64,000 bases of DNA from an uncultured Acidimicrobiales bacterium (GTDB lineage Bacteria > Actinomycetota > Acidimicrobiia > Acidimicrobiales > VFJN01). Below, in pieces: positions 18,962-27,726 of the stretch; positions within the stretch are counted from its first letter, which is position 1, and each line of letters begins with the position of its first letter. The DNA lies in contig CAVZUI010000013.1 in assembly GCA_963778415.1 (NCBI GenBank), positions 67,976-131,975 of the forward strand, written 5' to 3'. The translations under genes and the position numbers were made by a program. The notes beneath the pieces are model-generated. The model did no database searches and was not told where the DNA came from. It saw only the letters and a list, made by a program, of their open reading frames with translations.

Positions 18962-20207
18962 GTGCACTCCACGCTGGACCTCACCGTCGACCCCACGGGC
19001 GCCGGGTTCGACCCCGCCCGCCTCGGCCGGATCGACGACCACCTGCGCACCCGGTACGTCGAGGCCGGAAAGATCGCCGGCTGCCAGGTGCTGGTGTCCC
19101 GCGGCGGGACGCTGGCGCACGCCGCGACCATCGGGCTGGCCGATCGTGAGCGCGAGGTCCCCGTGCGCCCCGACACGATCTGGCGCATCTTCTCGATGAC
19201 CAAGCCGGTCACCGGCGTGGCGCTCCTCACCCTGTACGAGCAGGGCAAGGTGGCGCTGAAGGACCCGGTCGAGCGGTACCTGCCCGAGTTCCGCGGGGTC
19301 AAGGTGCGCGAGAAGGACGCCGGCGGTGAGGTGCACCTCGTCGACCCGGTGCGGCCGATGACGGTGCGCGACCTGCTGATGCACACGTCCGGCATCGGCT
19401 ACGGCCCGCCGGAGCGCCCGCATGGACCTCGCCACCCTCGGCGACCGCCCGCCGTCGGCCCGGATGTCCGGCGGCGGCGACCTCCAGGTGCTGGTCGAGC
19501 GCCTGGGGCCCGAGCCGCTGCGCTTCCACCCGGGCGCGCACTGGCTGTACTCGTGGTCGACCGACGTGGCCGCCCGGGTCGTCGAGGTGGTGTCGGGGTC
19601 GCGGTTCGACGAGTACCTCCAGGACACGATCTTCGACCCGCTGGGCATGGCCGACACCGGCTTCTCGGTGCCCGACGCCTCGATCGACCGCTTCGCCGCG
19701 CTGTACCGGCGCGACCGGGCCAAGCGGCTGGTGCTCAGCGACGACCCGCTGACCAGCGCCTTCCGCACGCACCCCGAGTTCCTGTCGGGCGGCGGTGGCC
19801 TGGCGTCGACCGCGGCCGACTACCTGCGCTTCTGCCGGATGCTGGCCGGCGGCGGGGCGGTCGACGGCGTGCGGGTGCTGGCGCCTCGCACCGTCGAGCT
19901 GATGCGGACGAACCACCTGCCGGGTGGGGGCGACCTGCGCGGCGTCGCGCTGCCGGGCGGCTACGGCGAGGTCGGCTTCGACGGCATGGGCTTCGGGCTG
20001 ACCGTGGCGGTGTCGTCCGGGCCGGCCGGGACGCAGTCCGCAGGGTCGGCCGGGACGTTCATGTGGGGCGGCCTGGCGTCGACGATCTTCTGGATCGATC
20101 CCACCGACGACGTCGTCGTGGTGTTCATGACCCAGCTCGTGCCGTCGGGGACGTTCGACTTCCGGGGCCAGCTCACCGCCCTCGTCTACGGCGCCCTCGT
20201 GGGCTGA
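18962..20207 (+). CDS. Serine hydrolase, beta-lactamase/esterase (class C-like) family; one apparent frameshift near 19415
   Basis: ORF 18962 frame: GCQVLVSRGGTLAHAATIGLADREREVPVRPDTIWRIFSMTKPVTGVALLTLYEQGK (SxxK motif). It continues in ORF 19422-20207: LRFHPGAHWLYSWSTDVAARVVEVVSG...GGGGLASTAADYLRFCRML...FMWGGLASTIFWIDP. Confidence 0.9.
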
Positions 20208-20853: not shown

Positions 20854-21264
20854 GTGACCGAGCAGATTCCGCTGGTCGACTACCTGGTGCTGGGGGACGA
20901 CCCGCACCTCGTGGCGCAGGAGTGCGACGCCTGTGGCGCCCGCTTCTTCGATCGCCGCAACGCCTGCGCGGCGTGCGGGGGCACCGGGTTCACGCCCGTC
21001 CCCGTCGCCACCGAGGGGGAGCTGCGGACCTTCACGATCGTCAGCTTCGCCGCCCCCGGCGTCCCCGTGCCCTTCGTCGCGGGCGTGATCGACTGCGACG
21101 GCACCAGCGTCCGGGGCAACGTGGTCAACGTCGAGCCCGACGCCGACCACGTGCGCACGGGCATGAAGGTGAAGCTCACGACCGTGCCGGTGGGCGTCGA
21201 CGCCGCCGGCACCGAGGCGGTGGGGTTCGGGTTCGAGCCGAGGGAGGCCTCACGTGGCCAGTGA
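20854..21264 (+). CDS. Zn-ribbon/OB-fold protein (DUF35 family), partner of SCP2-type thiolase
   Basis: Intact 136-aa ORF with a CxxC...CxxC ribbon (CDACGARFFDRRNACAACGG) and an OB-fold tail (RTFTIVSFAAPGVPVPFVAGVIDCDGTSVRGNVV). It overlaps the thiolase start by 11 nt. Confidence 0.85.
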   Translation: MTEQIPLVDYLVLGDDPHLVAQECDACGARFFDRRNACAACGGTGFTPVPVATEGELRTFTIVSFAAPGVPVPFVAGVIDCDGTSVRGNVVNVEPDADHVRTGMKVKLTTVPVGVDAAGTEAVGFGFEPREASRGQ

Positions 21265-22456
21265 CGACATCTGGATCCTCGGGATCCACATGACGAAGTT
21301 CGGGAAGCACCCCGACGAGGACCTCGTCGACCTGGCGTCCGAGGCGGCGATGGCCGCGCTCGCCGACGGCGGCGTGACCATGCAGGACATGGGCGTCGTG
21401 GCCGCGGGCAGCCTCATGGCGGCCGCCGCCGGTCTCGGGCAGCAGGTCCAGAAGCAGATCGGCCAGACCGGCATCCCCGTCTACAACGTGGCCAACGCCT
21501 GCGCCACGGGCGCCACCGCGCTGCGCACCGCGATCATGGCGGTCAAGGCCGGAGAGTGCGACATGGGCCTGGCGGTCGGCGCCGAGAAGCTGGCGGGTGC
21601 CGGCCTTCTGGCGGGCGGGAGCCGCAAGGACGACGGCGACACGTGGACGCCCCACGGGCGCTACGGGGCCGTGGCTCCCGTCGACGGGCGCATCGGCACC
21701 GAGATCATGCCCGGCGTCTTCGCGCAGATCGGCATGGAGTACGGCCACCGCTACGGCGGGGCCAGCTTCGAGCTGTTCGCCCGCATCAGCGAGAAGAACC
21801 ACGCCCACTCGACGCTCAACCCGCTGGCGGCCTACACGAAGCGCATGTCGCTCGAGGAGATCATGGGCGACGTCATGATCGCCTACCCCAACACCCGGCC
21901 GATGTGCTCGGCCAACTGCGACGGCGCCGCGGCCGCGGTGGTCGTGTCGGGCGAGCGGCTCAAGACGATGGACCCCGACCAGCGCCGCCGGGCGGTGAAG
22001 GTGTCGGCCTCGGTGCTGACGAGCGACCCGTGGGACGAGGCGTGCCAGGTGCTGCCCGACGTCAACACGCTCACCCGCAACGCCGCCCGCCAGGCCTACG
22101 ACGCGTCGGGCGTCGCCCCCGAGGACCTCGACCTGGTCGAGCTGCACGACTGCTTCGCCACCGCCGAGCTGGTCCACTACGACAACCTGATGCTGTGCCC
22201 GCCCGGCGAGGCGGCCGCGTTCTTCGAGTCCGGCGCCACGTGGCGCGACGGCTCGACGCCGGTCAACGTCTCGGGCGGCCTGCAGTCGAAGGGCCATCCG
22301 ATCGGGGCCACCGGCATCGCCAACATCTGGGAGGTGTGCCACCACCTCCGGGGCGAGGCGGGCGACCGGCAGATCGAGGGGGCGACGGTGGGGCTCGCCC
22401 ACGTCATCGGCCTCGGTTCGGCGTGCGGCGTCCACGTCCTCGAGAAGGCCGCCTGA
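21254..22456 (+). CDS. Thiolase family protein (SCP2-type thiolase / lipid-transfer protein)
   Basis: Intact 400-aa ORF: IWILGIHMTKFGKHPDEDLVDLASEAAMAALADGG...VYNVANACATGATALRTAIMAVKAGECDMGLAVGAEKL...ELHDCFATAELVHYDNL...NVSGGLQSKGHPIGATG. Confidence 0.92.
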   Translation: MASDDIWILGIHMTKFGKHPDEDLVDLASEAAMAALADGGVTMQDMGVVAAGSLMAAAAGLGQQVQKQIGQTGIPVYNVANACATGATALRTAIMAVKAGECDMGLAVGAEKLAGAGLLAGGSRKDDGDTWTPHGRYGAVAPVDGRIGTEIMPGVFAQIGMEYGHRYGGASFELFARISEKNHAHSTLNPLAAYTKRMSLEEIMGDVMIAYPNTRPMCSANCDGAAAAVVVSGERLKTMDPDQRRRAVKVSASVLTSDPWDEACQVLPDVNTLTRNAARQAYDASGVAPEDLDLVELHDCFATAELVHYDNLMLCPPGEAAAFFESGATWRDGSTPVNVSGGLQSKGHPIGATGIANIWEVCHHLRGEAGDRQIEGATVGLAHVIGLGSACGVHVLEKAA

Positions 22457-24165: not shown

Positions 24166-25011
24166 ATGGCCGCGACCCTCACCGCTCCCGGCGGCGCTCC
24201 CACGGTCGGCACGCTGCTGCGCGACTGGCGCCGCCGGCGCCGGCTCAGCCAGCTCGACCTGGCCAACGAGGCCGCGGTCTCGGCGCGGCACCTGAGCTTC
24301 GTCGAGACGGGGCGCTCGCGGCCGAGCCCCGAGCTGGTCATGCACCTCGCCGAGCACCTCGACGTGCCGCTGCGCGAGCGCAACGCGCTGCTGCTGGCGG
24401 CCGGGTACGCCCCGCGCTACGCCCAGACGCCCCTCGACGCGGCGGCGATGGCCCCCGTGCGCGACGCCCTCGAGGTGGTCCTCGCCGGTCACCACCCCTT
24501 CCCGGCCGTCGTGGCCGACCGGCACTGGAACCTGGTCACCGCCAACGACTCGGCCATGACCCTGTTGACCGACGGGATCGCCCCCGACCTGTTGGCGCCC
24601 CCGGCCAACGTCTTGCGGGTCAGCCTCCATCCCGAGGGGATGGCCCCGCGGATCGTGAACTTCGGGTCGTGGGCGGCGCACGTGGTCGACAGGGTGCGGC
24701 GCGAGGTCGAGGCGACCGGCGATCCGGTGCTGGACGAGCTGCACGCCGAGCTGTGCGGCTACCCCGGCGTGGCCGGATCTGCGTCGGCCCACGAGACCGT
24801 GGGCGAGCTGTTCGTCCCCCTCGTGCTGCGGATGCCGGACGGGTCGGAGCTCTCGTTCGTCAACACCGTCGCCACGTTCGGGACCGCACGCGACGTGACG
24901 GTCGACGAGCTGACGATCGAGTCGTTCTTCCCGGCCGACGCGGCCGACCGCGGCTGCCCTGCGCGCCCTGTGGGACTGACGGCCGCGCGCGGTCACAGCA
25001 GGGTGAGCTGA
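24166..25011 (+). CDS. XRE-family HTH transcriptional regulator with MmyB-like ligand-binding domain; probable frameshift near 24945 (likely true stop 24979)
   Basis: ORF 24166-25011: TVGTLLRDWRRRRRLSQLDLANEAAVSARHLSFVETGRSRPSPELVMHLAEHLDVPLRERNALLLAAGYAP...HPFPAVVADRHWNLVTANDSA...TVDELTIESFFPAD. An alternative frame after PADAA gives TAAALRALWD-stop, which looks like the native C-terminus. Confidence 0.88.
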   Translation: MAATLTAPGGAPTVGTLLRDWRRRRRLSQLDLANEAAVSARHLSFVETGRSRPSPELVMHLAEHLDVPLRERNALLLAAGYAPRYAQTPLDAAAMAPVRDALEVVLAGHHPFPAVVADRHWNLVTANDSAMTLLTDGIAPDLLAPPANVLRVSLHPEGMAPRIVNFGSWAAHVVDRVRREVEATGDPVLDELHAELCGYPGVAGSASAHETVGELFVPLVLRMPDGSELSFVNTVATFGTARDVTVDELTIESFFPADAADRGCPARPVGLTAARGHSRVS

Positions 25012-27107
25012 TCGGCCGCGGGGGAGCGCGGCCGATCGACCTGCCCCGGTAGCGCCACGGGTGTGGCCGGCGCGGCCGGCGCGGGGCGCCGGCCGGTCAT
25101 GTGCTCGGGGTCGCCCCGCTCGGCGGAGGTGCCGCCGTGGGCGCGCACCAGCTCGCGCACCTGGGCGGCGAGCGCTTGCTGGTCGGCCTTGGGGGCGTAG
25201 ACGCGGTCGCGATAGCGGCGCTGTATCTCGGGCACCAGGTGGGGGTGCGTCTCGGCGAGCCGGGAGAGGTAGACCTCGCGCACCCCCGGCCGCAGGTGCA
25301 GCAGAACGGTCGAGATCGACGTGGCCCCTGCCTCGACACACGCCTGCACGACGGCGTCGAGCTGGTCGGGGCCGTCGGACAGGCCGGGGAGCACGGGCGC
25401 CACCAGCACTCCGCGTCTCGATGCCCGCGGCGTTGAGCGCCTCGACCGCCCGGACGCGCCGGAGCGGGTGCGGCGTGCCCGGCTCGGTGGCGCGCCACAC
25501 GTCTTCGTCGAGCGTGCCGATGGAGAAGTTCACCCGGACGCTGGTGCGCCGGGCGGCGCGGGCGAGCAGGTCGAGGTCGCGGAGCACGAGGGTCGACTTG
25601 GTGAGGATCGAGAAGGGGTTGGCGAACTCGCTCAGCACCTCGACGATGCCCCGGGTGAGGCGGTACTTGCCCTCGGCCCGCTGGTAGGGGTCGGTGTTGG
25701 TGCCCATGGCGATGAGCTCGCCCCGCCACCGCCGGGGGTCGAGCTCGCTGCGCAGGTGCGACACGGCGTTGACCTTGACCACGATGCGCCGCTCGAAGTC
25801 GCGGTCGGCGTCGAGGTCGAGGTAGGTGTGGGTGGGGCGAGCGAAGCAGTTGTGGCTGACCACCCCGTTGGCGATGAAGTCGCCGGTCCCGGTGGTGATG
25901 TCGAACATCGGGAGGTCGAGCCCCATCGGCTCGATGGCGACCACTCCGAGCCGGGCATCGCTCTTGATGGCCACGTCGTCGATCGTGCGCTTGCGGGTGA
26001 TCGCCGGATCCACCGTGTGGAAGAAGGCGAGGTGCCGGCGGAGGCCCGCCGACCAGGCGTACGTACCGCACGCTGTTCGGACGCCCGCCGTCGTCGAGGA
26101 CGTGGTCGAAGCCGAGCCGATCGAGGCAGAGCTGCGTCCACTGGATCATCTCGTCGTCGGCGTTGCAGATGCGCAGGATCCCGCGGCTGTACGAGCCCTC
26201 GGCGTCGAAGATGCCGGCGAGGAACCCGCGGCACCAGTCGATCGATGGATCGTTCGGCCACACGACGAGACGCCGGACGGACGCGACGCCGACGGCCGAC
26301 TGCGTGCGGATCGCCGTGATGGCGCGACGCGTCGCCGACGCGGGCGCGAAGGCGAACTCCGTCGTCGCGACGCCTGCGTGCGCCAGGTACTCGCGCGCTC
26401 GATGCAGGGCCTCGGTGTCGGCCAGGGCGAGGCGGAACCGATGGACCGTGCCACCTCCGGGCCACGAGCGCCGGTCGTACGTGTACGTACCCAGCGTCCC
26501 GTCGCCACGGATGAGGCCGCCGAGGTAGCCGCGCTCGTACTCGGGCTCCACCTTGGGCGTCTCGGGGAGCGCGCCGATCCCGAGCAGCGAGTTGTTCAGC
26601 GTGAGGTGGGGTCGCCGTGCGGCACCTTGGCCAGCGCCGGTGACGTGCTTCCAACCGCGGTCGGTGAGGAAGCGGTGGTCGCCGCTCGCCATCAGGGTCG
26701 TGCCGTCTTCGAGCGTGACCCGGTACCCGGGCTTCACCGTCGACCAGTGGTCGAGCACGGGAGTCGGGACGTAGCGGCGGTAGGCGCCCTTGTCGCACGG
26801 TGCCGTACACCAGGTCGCCGGGTCGCACGTCGGCGAGCGCCTTCGACCGACCGTCCGCCATGAGGACCGGCGTGTCGCCACTGAGGCAGTAGCTGCATGC
26901 ATGAGTGCAGCCCCGGTAGGGGTTGATCGTGTACCGGAAGCCGAACGGGGCGCCCTTGACCTCGTTGATGACCCGTTGGGCCCGCACGTGCAGGAACTCG
27001 ATGCCCCGGTACTCGCCCCGACCGGGCTGGCGCTCGAAGATCGGCTCGTCGAACAACGTCTGCTGGGGCCGCGGCTCTTCGGCTCGGTCCCACCGCAAAG
27101 CTGCCAT
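24993..27107 (-). CDS. Radical SAM protein (Rv2578c-like family) interrupted by an intein; about three apparent frameshifts (~25410, ~26040, ~26790)
   Basis: N-extein in ORF 25632-27107: FRYTINPYRGCTHACSY then CLSGDTPVLMADG. C-extein in the ORF 24076-26013 frame: VVSHN then CFARPTHTYLDLDADRDFERRIVVKVN...IAMGTNTDPYQRAEGKYRLTRGIVEVL...FSILTKS...VNFSIGTLDEDVWRATEPGTPHP. The tail is in ORF 24993-25409. Confidence 0.9.
25849..26888 (-). mobile_element. Intein with LAGLIDADG homing-endonuclease domain, inserted at the third Cys of the radical SAM CX3CX2C motif
   Basis: Block A is CLSGDTPVLMADGR (Cys1 codon 26886-26888). Block B is TLMASGDHRFLTDRGW. The LAGLIDADG motifs are YLGGLIRGDGTL and FLAGIFDAEGSY (ORF 25097-27127 frame). 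Blocks F/G are FDITTGTGDFIANGVVSHN followed by +1 Cys (Asn codon 25849-25851). Confidence 0.88.
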
Positions 27108-27148
27108 GGGCCCACCCTAGCGAACATGTGTACGGGTCGGCGTCTCCG

Positions 27149-27726
27149 TCAGCGCGCCAGGAGCGTGCGCAGGACGTCGCGTGTCGTCGCGATGGGCTCG
27201 GTCGACTGCTCGCCCCGGGCCATGACGATCGTGCCCTCGATGCCCGCGATCACGAGGGTGGCCAGGCCGTGGGCCTCGTCGGCCGTCCGGCCCTCGGCCT
27301 GCAGCGCGGCGTCGCAGCACGTCGGTCCACTCGCGCAGGGCCTTCCCGGTGGCGTCGGCCAGCAAGGGGTGCGTGGACGCCGCGTCGAGGGCGACCGTGG
27401 CCACCGCGCAGCCCTCGGCGTAGGCGGTGCGGTCGAGGTGCTCGACGTAGCCGTCGAAGATGGCGGCCACGGCGTCGGCCACCGTGTCGTGTTCGGCCAG
27501 GATCTCGTGCATGCGGCTGGTGGCCCGCTCCGGCGAAGCGGTCGACCGCGGCCGCGGCGAGCTCGACCTTGCCCCCGGGGAAGTGGAAGTACATCGAGCC
27601 ACGCGGGGCCTCGGCCTCGGCCATGACCTGGTTGAGACCGGTCGCCGCATAGCCCTGCGTGCGCAGGAGCCGGCTGGTCGAACGGACGAGTCGATCACGC
27701 GTGTCGGATGCCACAGCGGACAGCAT
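27149..27726 (-). CDS. TetR/AcrR family transcriptional regulator; two apparent frameshifts
   Basis: ORF 27250-27726: DTRDRLVRSTSRLLRTQGYAATGLNQVMAEAEAPRGSMYFHFPGGKVELAAAAV. The middle is in the ORF 27117-29081 frame (ILAEHDTVADAVAAIFDGYVEHLDRTAYAEGCAVATVALDAAS). A third frame gives EAHGLATLVIAGIEGTIVMARGEQSTEPIATTRDVLRTLLAR-stop (27149). Confidence 0.85.

Follow-up and report, generated by a model that had tools for sequence, protein, structure and literature searches.

A probable class-1 LAGLIDADG intein at the third cluster cysteine of an Rv2578c-like radical SAM gene from an Acidimicrobiales bacterium

Results

The locus described here lies in a 64,000-nucleotide stretch of DNA from an uncultured Acidimicrobiales bacterium, referred to below as the window, and consists of a minus-strand gene for a predicted radical SAM protein that is interrupted by an intein. 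The coding region opens with an ATG at 27107, and its N-extein of 73 amino acids (26889..27107, minus strand) ends with ...RGC(67)THAC(71)SY, a segment holding the first two cysteines of a CX3CX2C motif (26909-26889, minus strand). The intein comprises 346 amino acids (25849..26888, minus strand), with a LAGLIDADG homing endonuclease nested within a HINT splicing domain, and extends from the Cys1 codon (26888-26886) to the terminal Asn codon (25851-25849), both on the minus strand. The C-extein of 284 amino acids (24996..25848, minus strand) supplies the remainder of the radical SAM core; it begins at Cys+1 (25848-25846), and the host gene is closed by a TGA stop codon (24995-24993, minus strand). 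At the junctions, PYRGCTHACSY ends at 26889, CLSGDTPVLMADG runs from 26888, FIANGVVSHN ends at 25849 and CFARPTHTY runs from 25848. These peptides and the boundaries 25849-26888 had been named in the original prediction, made from the letters of the DNA alone, and every one of them is present and exact to the base on the minus strand; the peptides had however been stitched silently from three different reading frames, and three frameshifts had been missed. Reading 25849-26888 on the plus strand gave a meaningless translation.

As assembled, the frame order of the gene is 0 -> 1 -> 2 -> 0, and a single ORF could be ruled out since three frames are needed. The frame switches because of three one-nucleotide insertions near 26786, 26047 and 25413. 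The first extra base (26786..26789, minus strand; ...CAAGGGCGCC... against ...CGA-GGCGCC...) moves the gene from frame 0 to 1, the second (26047..26048, minus strand; GTCGGCGGGCC against GTCGG-GGGCC) from frame 1 to 2, and the third (25413, minus strand), which is placed outside any homopolymer between the ACG (Thr) and GGA (Gly) codons of ...IETGVLV..., from frame 2 back to 0. Two of them fall within the intein, whose interval of 1040 nt corresponds to 346 codons plus 2 bases (1038 nt plus the 2 inserted), and one within the C-extein. The translation from the ATG as assembled departs from the native sequence past approximately residue 107. When one base was dropped near each of the three positions, a stitched ORF of 703 codons was obtained, which is 91% identical to an intact homolog of 700 amino acids (P0001); the N-extein of the window and residues 1-73 of this homolog are 94.5% identical with a dN/dS of 0.09. 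The homolog search returned hundreds of intact proteins, each of about 700 amino acids, and the in-frame insertion of the intein that is lacking in the assembled window is found in these intact homologs.

The top profile match of the stitched protein, well past anything that chance would give, was NF038136 with 677 bits (E = 2e-203; curated cutoff 700), together with NF038135, for which 376 bits were obtained and 382 with the spliced product (cutoff 430). Despite these scores below the cutoffs, the two models were the top matches by a wide margin. The intact P0001 likewise stays under the NF038136 cutoff (669 against 700), and the sub-cutoff score, being common to both proteins, indicates a divergent Acidimicrobiales branch and not a different family. 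The radical SAM model PF04055 matched with 45 bits, and upon in silico splicing C67-x3-C71-x2-C(+1) becomes contiguous and identical to the motif of the empty alleles. The remark in the original prediction that intein-containing Rv2578c-like proteins were already named by NCBI was right: NF038136 is the model in question, and its family name is borne by an Acidimicrobiales homolog 62% identical to the protein of the window (P0062, score 700.8). A sequence search of solved structures returned no match for the host enzyme and weak mini-intein matches for the intein.

In 21 intein-free alleles the corresponding region reads RGC.HAC.Y-CFARPTHTY, which equals the predicted ligated exteins (C...C..|CFARP). 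Since the empty alleles match the predicted spliced product, the insertion could be placed immediately before the third cysteine of CX3CX2C, exactly where the original prediction had put it, and the intein-free alleles that it had proposed to look for do occur in close relatives with the same motif uninterrupted.

Residue conservation was analysed in 147 intein alleles (135 full-length and 12 mini-inteins), while junctions and Cys1 were counted in 150. All the positions expected to act in splicing (Cys1, the block B Ser and His, the block F Asp, the His-Asn pair and Cys+1) were invariant or at least 99% conserved across the analysed alleles. Block A, CLSGDTPVLMADG (26850..26888, minus strand), opens with the Cys1 nucleophile, which is present in 147/147 analysed alleles and 150/150 intein alleles. 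Block B, SGDHRFLT (26663..26686, minus strand), is an S-x-x-H variant of TxxH; its SGDH occupies intein residues 68-71, aligns with block B of the solved DnaB and gp41-1 mini-inteins, and shows 100% conservation of the Ser and 99% of the His. Blocks F and G, MFDITTGTGDF-IANGVVSHN (25849..25908, minus strand), contribute the block F Asp (D329), the penultimate His (H345) and the terminal Asn (N346), invariant across alleles, and the junction [VI]SHN|CFARP was found in 146 of the 150 alleles.

It had been proposed that the translation be compared with Hint and LAGLIDADG models, and the outcome was divided. PF14528 (LAGLIDADG_3) matched residues 291-352 of the stitched protein with 31.5 bits (cutoff 22.5), and the generic Hint profiles gave borderline scores below their thresholds (PF14890, 17.9 against 35.8; TIGR01445, 24.2 against 24.5); several homologs carry a precomputed PF14890 match. 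The DnaB-type intein model NF005852 gave a weak match of 35 bits. For P0001, which shares about 90% identity with the window in the intein, an AF2 model with a mean pLDDT of 84 was examined, and the best PDB matches of this model were the TliVMA, PI-PfuI and PI-SceI inteins (7qsu, 1dq3, 1ef0; E 1e-13 to 1e-9), hence a HINT fold is predicted by way of this homolog. The sequence blocks and the modelled fold together support a class-1 assignment for the intein and the presence of a LAGLIDADG endonuclease nested in it.

Both LAGLIDADG motifs that had been reported could be located. The first, YLGGLIRGDGTL (26492..26527, minus strand), ends in the catalytic Asp (...IRGDG) and the second, FLAGIFDAEGSY (26189..26224, minus strand), in the catalytic Glu (...FDAEG); these residues are kept in 130/135 and 128/135 full-length inteins, respectively (about 95%), and motif 1 is missing from the mini-inteins. 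The endonuclease domain of the P0001 model could be superimposed on I-DmoI with a TM score of 0.76 and an rmsd of about 3 A, and this homolog model displays the alpha-beta-beta-alpha-beta-beta-alpha pseudo-dimer fold of LAGLIDADG enzymes. Among host genes that are 86-95% identical, alleles with a full intein (about 346 aa), with a mini-intein (140-180 aa) and with none occur intermingled: the empty alleles share 86-92% extein identity with the window, and one mini-intein allele (P0033, 159 aa) shares 94.5%. Of the cultured relatives, Prauserella and Longispora, for instance, possess the intein allele. Host genes which are 93-95% identical can hold inteins that are just 52-60% identical, and between the window and P0001 the dS is 0.13 for the intein and about 0.3 for the exteins. 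A candidate 48-bp endonuclease target is conserved in the empty alleles, with the empty site reading GGCTGCACCCACGCCTGCACCTAC|TGCTTCGCCCGGCCCACCCACACC. The presence/absence polymorphism at one site, the mini derivatives and the conserved catalytic residues support a mobile, homing intein, in agreement with the proposal that it is, or formerly was, a homing element.

A LexA/SOS-box-like palindrome, GTACACATGTTC (27122..27133, minus strand), precedes the start codon by approximately 26 nt. The box of the window, GTAC-ACAT-GTTC, has one core mismatch relative to the actinobacterial TCGAAC-N4-GTTCGA type, and of 79 related loci 59 have G[A/T]AC-N4-GTTC at a similar offset, intein-bearing and intein-free ones alike. 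A LexA-box scan of the window alone gave 87 matches against about 28 expected, and is informative only through the conservation across loci. In M. tuberculosis the Rv2578c region has a LexA ChIP peak (PMC3381160). The conserved box suggests that the host gene could be SOS-inducible. It is directly followed by GCTAnAGT / TAGGGT, conserved in relatives, of which the window copy, TAGGGT (27114..27119, minus strand), stands 6 nt before the ATG. This is a putative -10-like hexamer, with which the host mRNA would probably be leaderless or have a very short leader; a simple sigma-70/terminator consensus scan around the gene returned no match. Searching the window against Rfam and for tRNA genes gave no matches either.

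Discussion

Taken at face value, the assembled gene is broken in three places. The three insertions most likely arose as consensus errors during assembly and are probably not features of the organism, judging from sequence comparison; it is to assembly indels that the loss of the in-frame insertion in the window is attributed, on the basis of the split neighbours and of the comparison with two related assemblies (L081 and L082). Relative to the syntenic L081 at least seven neighbouring genes are split across frames, including those for CorA, TetR, a beta-lactamase, an aldehyde dehydrogenase and a DEAD helicase, and 53 indels of a length other than 3n were counted over about 18 kb; for the window and related long-read MAG contigs the rate of frameshifting indels was given as roughly 1-2 per kb. 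Split copies of the gene were confined to contigs with long-read-style names (L036, L042, L054, L061, L063), and none of the short-read k141, k127 and NODE contigs was split. Were the frameshifts real, the radical SAM gene would be a recently inactivated pseudogene and the intein a dead passenger in it. The early loss of the native frame would agree with such a history, and so would the privacy of the three insertions to the window sequence (those near 26789 and 25413 are absent from both L081 and L082) and the finding that at least two of the three inserted bases are outside homopolymer runs, unlike the classic long-read error signature. We consider it improbable nevertheless: the same kind of single-base indel hits most of the neighbours, which would demand a simultaneous genome-wide decay, and the sister assembly L082 carries about 30 private indels at other positions of the same gene (L081 none), as random consensus error would. 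The fragments moreover retain 87-97% amino acid identity and contain no in-frame stops, and their dN/dS of 0.09-0.49 is well below 1 (0.09-0.20 for the exteins with the shifted downstream parts included, the frame segments of the C-extein having 0.11 and 0.20). A gene-specific pseudogene was dropped as the leading explanation because the neighbours are equally frameshifted and the indels of the sister assembly differ. Programmed ribosomal frameshifting as the source of the frame changes, or their separating independently expressed pieces of a split intein or split gene, is hardly credible, and can be regarded as effectively refuted by the sequences compared. All three shifts have the same direction (+1 base), but their positions are common to no relative, a single frame covers the same residues in intact homologs, the junctions have neither start codons nor split-intein boundaries, two of the three shifts would fall inside folded domains, and identical indels are spread throughout unrelated neighbouring genes.

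We therefore retain consensus error as the source of the frame changes, and consider it very probable that the locus is an Rv2578c/COG1533 ('SplB-like') radical SAM gene with a class-1 LAGLIDADG intein inserted before the third cysteine of the cluster motif, its frameshifts being errors of the assembly.

Following canonical intein chemistry, a precursor of 77.6 kDa would be translated first, in which the intein Cys1 would perform an N-S acyl shift; the resulting thioester would be attacked by Cys+1, the future third cluster ligand, and Asn346 would then cyclise with the help of His345. The products would be an intein of 37.8 kDa and an enzyme of 39.8 kDa with the contiguous motif CTHACSYCFARP, which could then bind its cluster and SAM. 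That the cluster would not be bound before splicing, as the original prediction had stated, is a reasonable inference from the position of the insertion. The precursor keeps a linear CX3CX2C (CTHACSY-C) in which the third position is the intein's own Cys1, so that some metal or disulfide chemistry might take place there. In intein-free alleles the endonuclease would cut the conserved empty site, and repair would copy the intein in. The host gene would have its own promoter, overlapped by the LexA-type box, and on account of this overlap would probably be induced by DNA damage.

MoaA is a radical SAM enzyme, and its intein in P. abyssi presumably occupies the same motif position, a judgement made from the Cys-3/Cys1 spacing. 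Like the intein of the window, it combines an N-extein Cys at -3 with the catalytic Cys1, and the C-x-x-C spacing corresponds to the interval between the second and the third cluster cysteine; unlike it, the MoaA intein resides in an archaeal host and in a different radical SAM family. In the MoaA intein a native Cys-3/Cys1 disulfide blocks splicing when oxidised and renders it redox-conditional, as recounted in two reviews (Callahan et al. 2011, via PMC3922620 and PMC10663303). By analogy, the intein of the window might be a conditional switch, a disulfide (Cys-3/Cys1 or Cys1/Cys+1) or a metal blocking its splicing, which we regard as a rather unlikely reading. It is just as doubtful that an oxygen-labile enzyme would in this way mature only in reducing, Fe-S-permissive conditions after SOS induction. 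That the intein has been kept because extein Cys(-7) and Cys(-3), Cys1 and Cys+1 trap the precursor until Fe-S-permissive conditions return is likewise a tentative proposal with the odds against it. In favour of it, the cysteines have the Cys(-3)-x-x-Cys1 geometry, the intein is widely retained across Actinomycetota with intact splicing residues, the host gene appears to be LexA-controlled as judged from its box and from the M. tuberculosis ChIP peak, and the cluster loop is the low-confidence part of the precursor model. The flanking cysteines are however not independent evidence, because they would be conserved anyway as cluster ligands, and the many close relatives without any intein argue against an essential regulatory role. 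If this reading were true, the element would parallel, in an actinobacterial host, the redox trap described for P. abyssi MoaA, with the difference that the future [4Fe-4S] ligand itself would be the splicing nucleophile.

Among characterised systems, the mycobacterial RecA (PI-MtuI), DnaB and SufB inteins resemble the present one in being actinobacterial class-1 elements inserted at conserved functional motifs; their hosts are DNA-repair, replication or Fe-S proteins, they contain LAGLIDADG domains or remnants of these, and RecA is an SOS gene, as the host gene of the window putatively is. Their host proteins and insertion sites are different. Stress-conditional splicing of several mycobacterial inteins is described in PMC6195587, PMC11377839 and PMC8891592. 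PI-SceI, PI-PfuI, TliVMA and I-DmoI, compared with the P0001 model by Foldseek, have the fold in common (HINT and pseudo-dimeric LAGLIDADG), although the sequence identity is 14-19% and the hosts are unrelated. The closest correspondence is with the NF038136 / SplB (COG1533) inteins, which share host family, phylum and architecture with that of the window, whose 346 amino acids compare with about 257 intein match positions implied by NF038136 (574 minus 317).

This intein family is already catalogued, in NF038136 and by Novikova et al. 2016 (PMC4760082), where Table 1 lists 48 inteins in SplB/COG1533, in Actinobacteria only, and SplB/Rv2578c radical SAM proteins figured among the foremost bacterial hosts of inteins. 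A literature search on inteins in radical SAM proteins and on Rv2578c found no dedicated paper, and among the open-access texts none was found that states the insertion at the third CX3CX2C cysteine explicitly; a Campylobacter phage paper was rejected as a precedent, the inteins and radical SAM proteins being mentioned there separately.

The discovery value of the locus is accordingly little, the family having been curated by NCBI and counted in 2016. It nevertheless provides a clean textbook case of an intein seated on a catalytic residue, and its close relatives display every stage of the homing cycle; it also shows that reading the window and related long-read MAG contigs at the level of ORFs needs frame-aware comparison. 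Through the conserved LexA box the Rv2578c radical SAM proteins may be connected with the response to DNA damage throughout Actinomycetota, and this putative link makes the idea of redox- or Fe-S-conditional splicing experimentally approachable.

Gene structure and insertion site

Six-frame translation of 24900-27200, together with the ORF list, placed the gene on the minus strand and recovered every peptide quoted in the original prediction: ...PYRGCTHACSY followed by CLSGDTPVLMADG in a first frame, the two LAGLIDADG motifs YLGGLIRGDGTL and FLAGIFDAEGSY in a second, ...FIANGVVSHN followed by CFARPTHTY in a third, and the final 139 residues of the host protein in the first frame again. The intein boundaries proposed there (26888-25849) were exact, with Cys1, the first intein residue, encoded by 26888-26886 and Asn346, the last one, by 25851-25849, but three frame changes had gone unreported. 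P0001, the closest intact homolog (700 aa, 91% identity, encoded on contig L081), matched the window in four collinear tblastn segments: residues 1-107 in frame -3, 96-354 in frame -1, 354-564 in frame -2 and 565-700 in frame -3. The 1040-nt intein interval holds 346 codons and two surplus bases, and one more surplus base lies within the C-extein; when one base was dropped near each of 26786, 26047 and 25413, a 703-codon ORF was obtained (27107-24996, minus strand, TGA 24995-24993).

The intein had been placed at the third cysteine of the radical SAM CX3CX2C motif, and the search for intein-free alleles in relatives clearly bore this out. In related Acidimicrobiales 21 such alleles were found, reading ...RGC.HAC.Y-CFARPTHTYLDLDAD..., and the window protein without residues 74-419 gives CTHACSY-CFARPTHTY, precisely their sequence. 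Since the empty alleles equal the predicted ligated exteins, the intein separates the Tyr from the third Cys of the motif, and Cys+1, the first residue of the C-extein, would become this third cysteine after splicing. To our knowledge, inteins typically sit in conserved motifs, at residues that serve in catalysis or as ligands. That cluster binding is impossible before splicing, as also proposed, is a sensible expectation and stays at that level, since the unspliced precursor retains a linear C-x3-C-x2-C with the intein Cys1 in the third position.

Identity of the element and its host protein

The stitched protein was recognized by NF038136, the curated NCBI model 'intein-containing Rv2578c family radical SAM protein' (677 bits, E = 2e-203), by NF038135, 'Rv2578c family radical SAM protein' (376 bits), and by PF04055 Radical_SAM (45 bits). 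The statement that this family is already named at NCBI was thus right (the Acidimicrobiales homolog P0062 bears the name, with 700.8 bits), and an intein-containing Rv2578c-family radical SAM protein is already known. The window protein itself is slightly below the NCBIfam cutoffs (677 vs 700; 382 vs 430 for its spliced form); since the intact P0001 does not reach them either (669 and 376), these scores point to an Acidimicrobiales branch that has diverged somewhat, rather than to damage. The expected profile matches were obtained in part: PF14528 LAGLIDADG_3 scored above its cutoff (31.5 vs 22.5 bits), but the generic Hint models were only borderline (PF14890 17.9 vs 35.8; TIGR01445 24.2 vs 24.5).

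To examine the splicing residues, 150 intein alleles, drawn from proteins and loci in the databases, were aligned, and conservation was scored in 135 full-length and 12 mini alleles. Cys1, the block F Asp, the terminal His-Asn and Cys+1 were invariant, and in the block B S-x-x-H the Ser was kept in 100% and the His in 99%; this conservation marks the element as a canonical class-1 intein. Among the full-length inteins the catalytic Asp of LAGLIDADG motif 1 was retained in 130 of 135 and the catalytic Glu of motif 2 in 128 of 135, which speaks for continuing selection on the endonuclease. The AlphaFold2 model built for the P0001 precursor (67-sequence alignment) had a mean pLDDT of 84, mostly above 90 in the intein, and its lowest-confidence internal regions (residues 66-72 and 421-423) each correspond to one half of the cluster-binding loop. 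Its top PDB matches in Foldseek were the endonuclease-bearing inteins TliVMA (7qsu), PI-PfuI (1dq3) and PI-SceI (1ef0/1vde), with E values of 1e-13 to 1e-9, and I-DmoI superposes on its endonuclease domain (TM 0.76 at ~3 Å).

Origin of the frameshifts

The three frame changes may be real and the gene a very recent pseudogene, or they may be consensus errors. In-frame stops were absent from every fragment of the radical SAM gene, and dN/dS against L081 was 0.25-0.49 in the intein and 0.09-0.20 in the exteins, where it stayed in this range beyond the shifts as well. The surroundings of the gene are similarly affected. In the window (G+C 73.7%) codon-position GC segmentation detected numerous short same-strand frame switches throughout the 64 kb. 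L081 is collinear with 15928-37210 at 83-94% nucleotide identity, and when each gene called on it was searched against the window, several orthologs appeared in two or three frames: those of CorA (30896-29920), TetR (27714-27152), a second aldehyde dehydrogenase (Aldedh, 31839-30963) and a DEAD helicase (18855-16948) on the minus strand, ChsH2 (20854-21334) and a beta-lactamase (18962-20201) on the plus strand, and a 163-aa ORF. Each fragment of these split neighbours is 84-97% identical in protein to its L081 ortholog, and nucleotide alignment with L081 revealed 53 non-3n indels in ~18 kb, mostly single bases and many outside homopolymers.

A second relative, the long-read contig L082 (93% identical; a different sample, apparently of the same ENA project), carries ~30 private single-base indels in its radical SAM gene (L082:1416-3570, ERZ25039456 contig_76808) at positions differing from those of the window, and L081 has none of that kind in this gene. 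The window insertions near 26789 and 25413 are absent from both relatives; the one near 26048 is absent from L081, the L082 alignment being ambiguous at that point. Among 80 reference-genome loci, multi-frame copies occurred only in L036, L042, L054, L061 and L063, which we infer from contig names and sizes to be long-read assemblies, and none of the short-read k141/k127/NODE contigs had a split copy. Since the neighbours are equally split, the frameshifts are not peculiar to the radical SAM gene, and their simplest reading is consensus error, very probably a technical artefact common to the rest of the window; a very recent pseudogene is less likely. ORF-based reading of this stretch consequently requires frame-aware comparison. 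The gene calls deposited for L082 at this gene are spurious 288-aa ORFs without Pfam hit, and illustrate how the intein gene drops out of annotation in such assemblies.

Mobility and allele diversity

The suggestion of a mobile element agrees well with the allele diversity at this single site and with the largely retained LAGLIDADG catalytic residues. The inteins were 340-359 aa long in 129 alleles, 300-339 aa in 6, 260-279 aa in 2 and 200-219 aa in one, 12 were mini-inteins of 140-179 aa with neither LAGLIDADG motif, and 21 alleles had no intein. When alleles are ordered by how closely their exteins match those of the window, the full, mini and empty states are interleaved: P0001 (full) and P0033 (mini-intein of 159 aa) both at 94.5%, the empty allele L047 at 91.6%, and further empty alleles at 86-88%. 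Inteins just 52-60% identical can sit in host genes 93-95% identical. The empty-site DNA, GGCTGCAnCCACGCCTGCACCTAC and TGCTTCGCCCGnCCCACCCACACC on the two sides of the insertion point, is highly conserved and would offer a stable candidate homing target; taken with the size and absence polymorphism and the interleaving, the pattern has the expected signatures of a cycle of invasion, fixation, endonuclease decay and loss. Between the window and L081 dS was 0.12-0.13 over ~280 intein codons and 0.25 in the last 66, and 0.24-0.32 in the exteins, about twice that of most of the intein. The lower intein dS hints, suggestively only, that the two inteins share a more recent ancestor than their host genes do, through exchange between lineages after host divergence.

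Mini-intein alleles (~140-180 aa; L043-L046, L048-L051, L053, L078-L080 and P0033) occupy the same site and keep all splicing blocks; the P0033 intein, 81% identical to that of the window over the common splicing domain, is a recent endonuclease-deletion derivative. At L042:10001-12120 the exteins are 96-99% identical to P0001 and the intein just ~62%, in different frames from both its exteins, so that either an intein of another lineage has replaced the original one in an almost unchanged host gene, or the stretch is heavily loaded with errors. L054 (CAVTEC010000106.1), binned as 'uncultured Alphaproteobacteria', has a frameshifted intein-containing Rv2578c gene of actinobacterial type (52-56% identity), which may reflect misbinning or a rare occurrence outside the phylum.

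Related systems and regulation

MoaA is a radical SAM enzyme, and its intein in Pyrococcus abyssi is the closest mechanistic precedent: Cys-3 and Cys1 are as far apart there as the second and third cysteines of the motif, from which the same relative insertion point may be inferred. Under oxidising conditions that intein is kept from splicing by a native disulfide between Cys-3 and Cys1 (PMC3922620, PMC10663303). 'SplB, COG1533, DNA repair photolyase' accounted for 48 inteins, in Actinobacteria only, in the survey of Novikova et al. (2016), and was one of the commonest bacterial hosts of inteins (PMC4760082). A Streptomyces member of the Rv2578c family has 17.6% identity to B. subtilis SplB, and the family is just distantly SplB-like; a solved homolog of the host enzyme was not detectable by sequence search.

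Across Actinomycetota, 59 of 79 loci have a LexA-box-type palindrome matching the strict pattern G[A/T]AC-N4-GTTC about 26 nt before the start codon, at intein-bearing and intein-free alleles alike, and most of the remaining loci come close to this pattern. The palindrome is directly followed by a -10-like GCTAnAGT/TAGGGT; from base composition less than one chance match is estimated in 79 upstream regions of 150 nt. In the window the palindrome is GTACACATGTTC (27133-27122), followed by TAGGGT (27119-27114) and the ATG at 27107, all on the minus strand. The TetR gene is 45 nt upstream and is probably not co-transcribed with the radical SAM gene; neither tRNA genes nor Rfam families at gathering threshold were present in the whole 64-kb window. 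The LexA ChIP-seq peak at Rv2578c/Rv2579 in M. tuberculosis is classed as RecA-dependent (PMC3381160). The palindrome, the -10-like element and this peak make it probable that the host gene is under its own SOS-controlled (DNA-damage-inducible), near-leaderless promoter. The radical SAM enzyme, if SOS-induced, might even be spliced conditionally, depending on redox or Fe-S, a reading that we consider rather unlikely.
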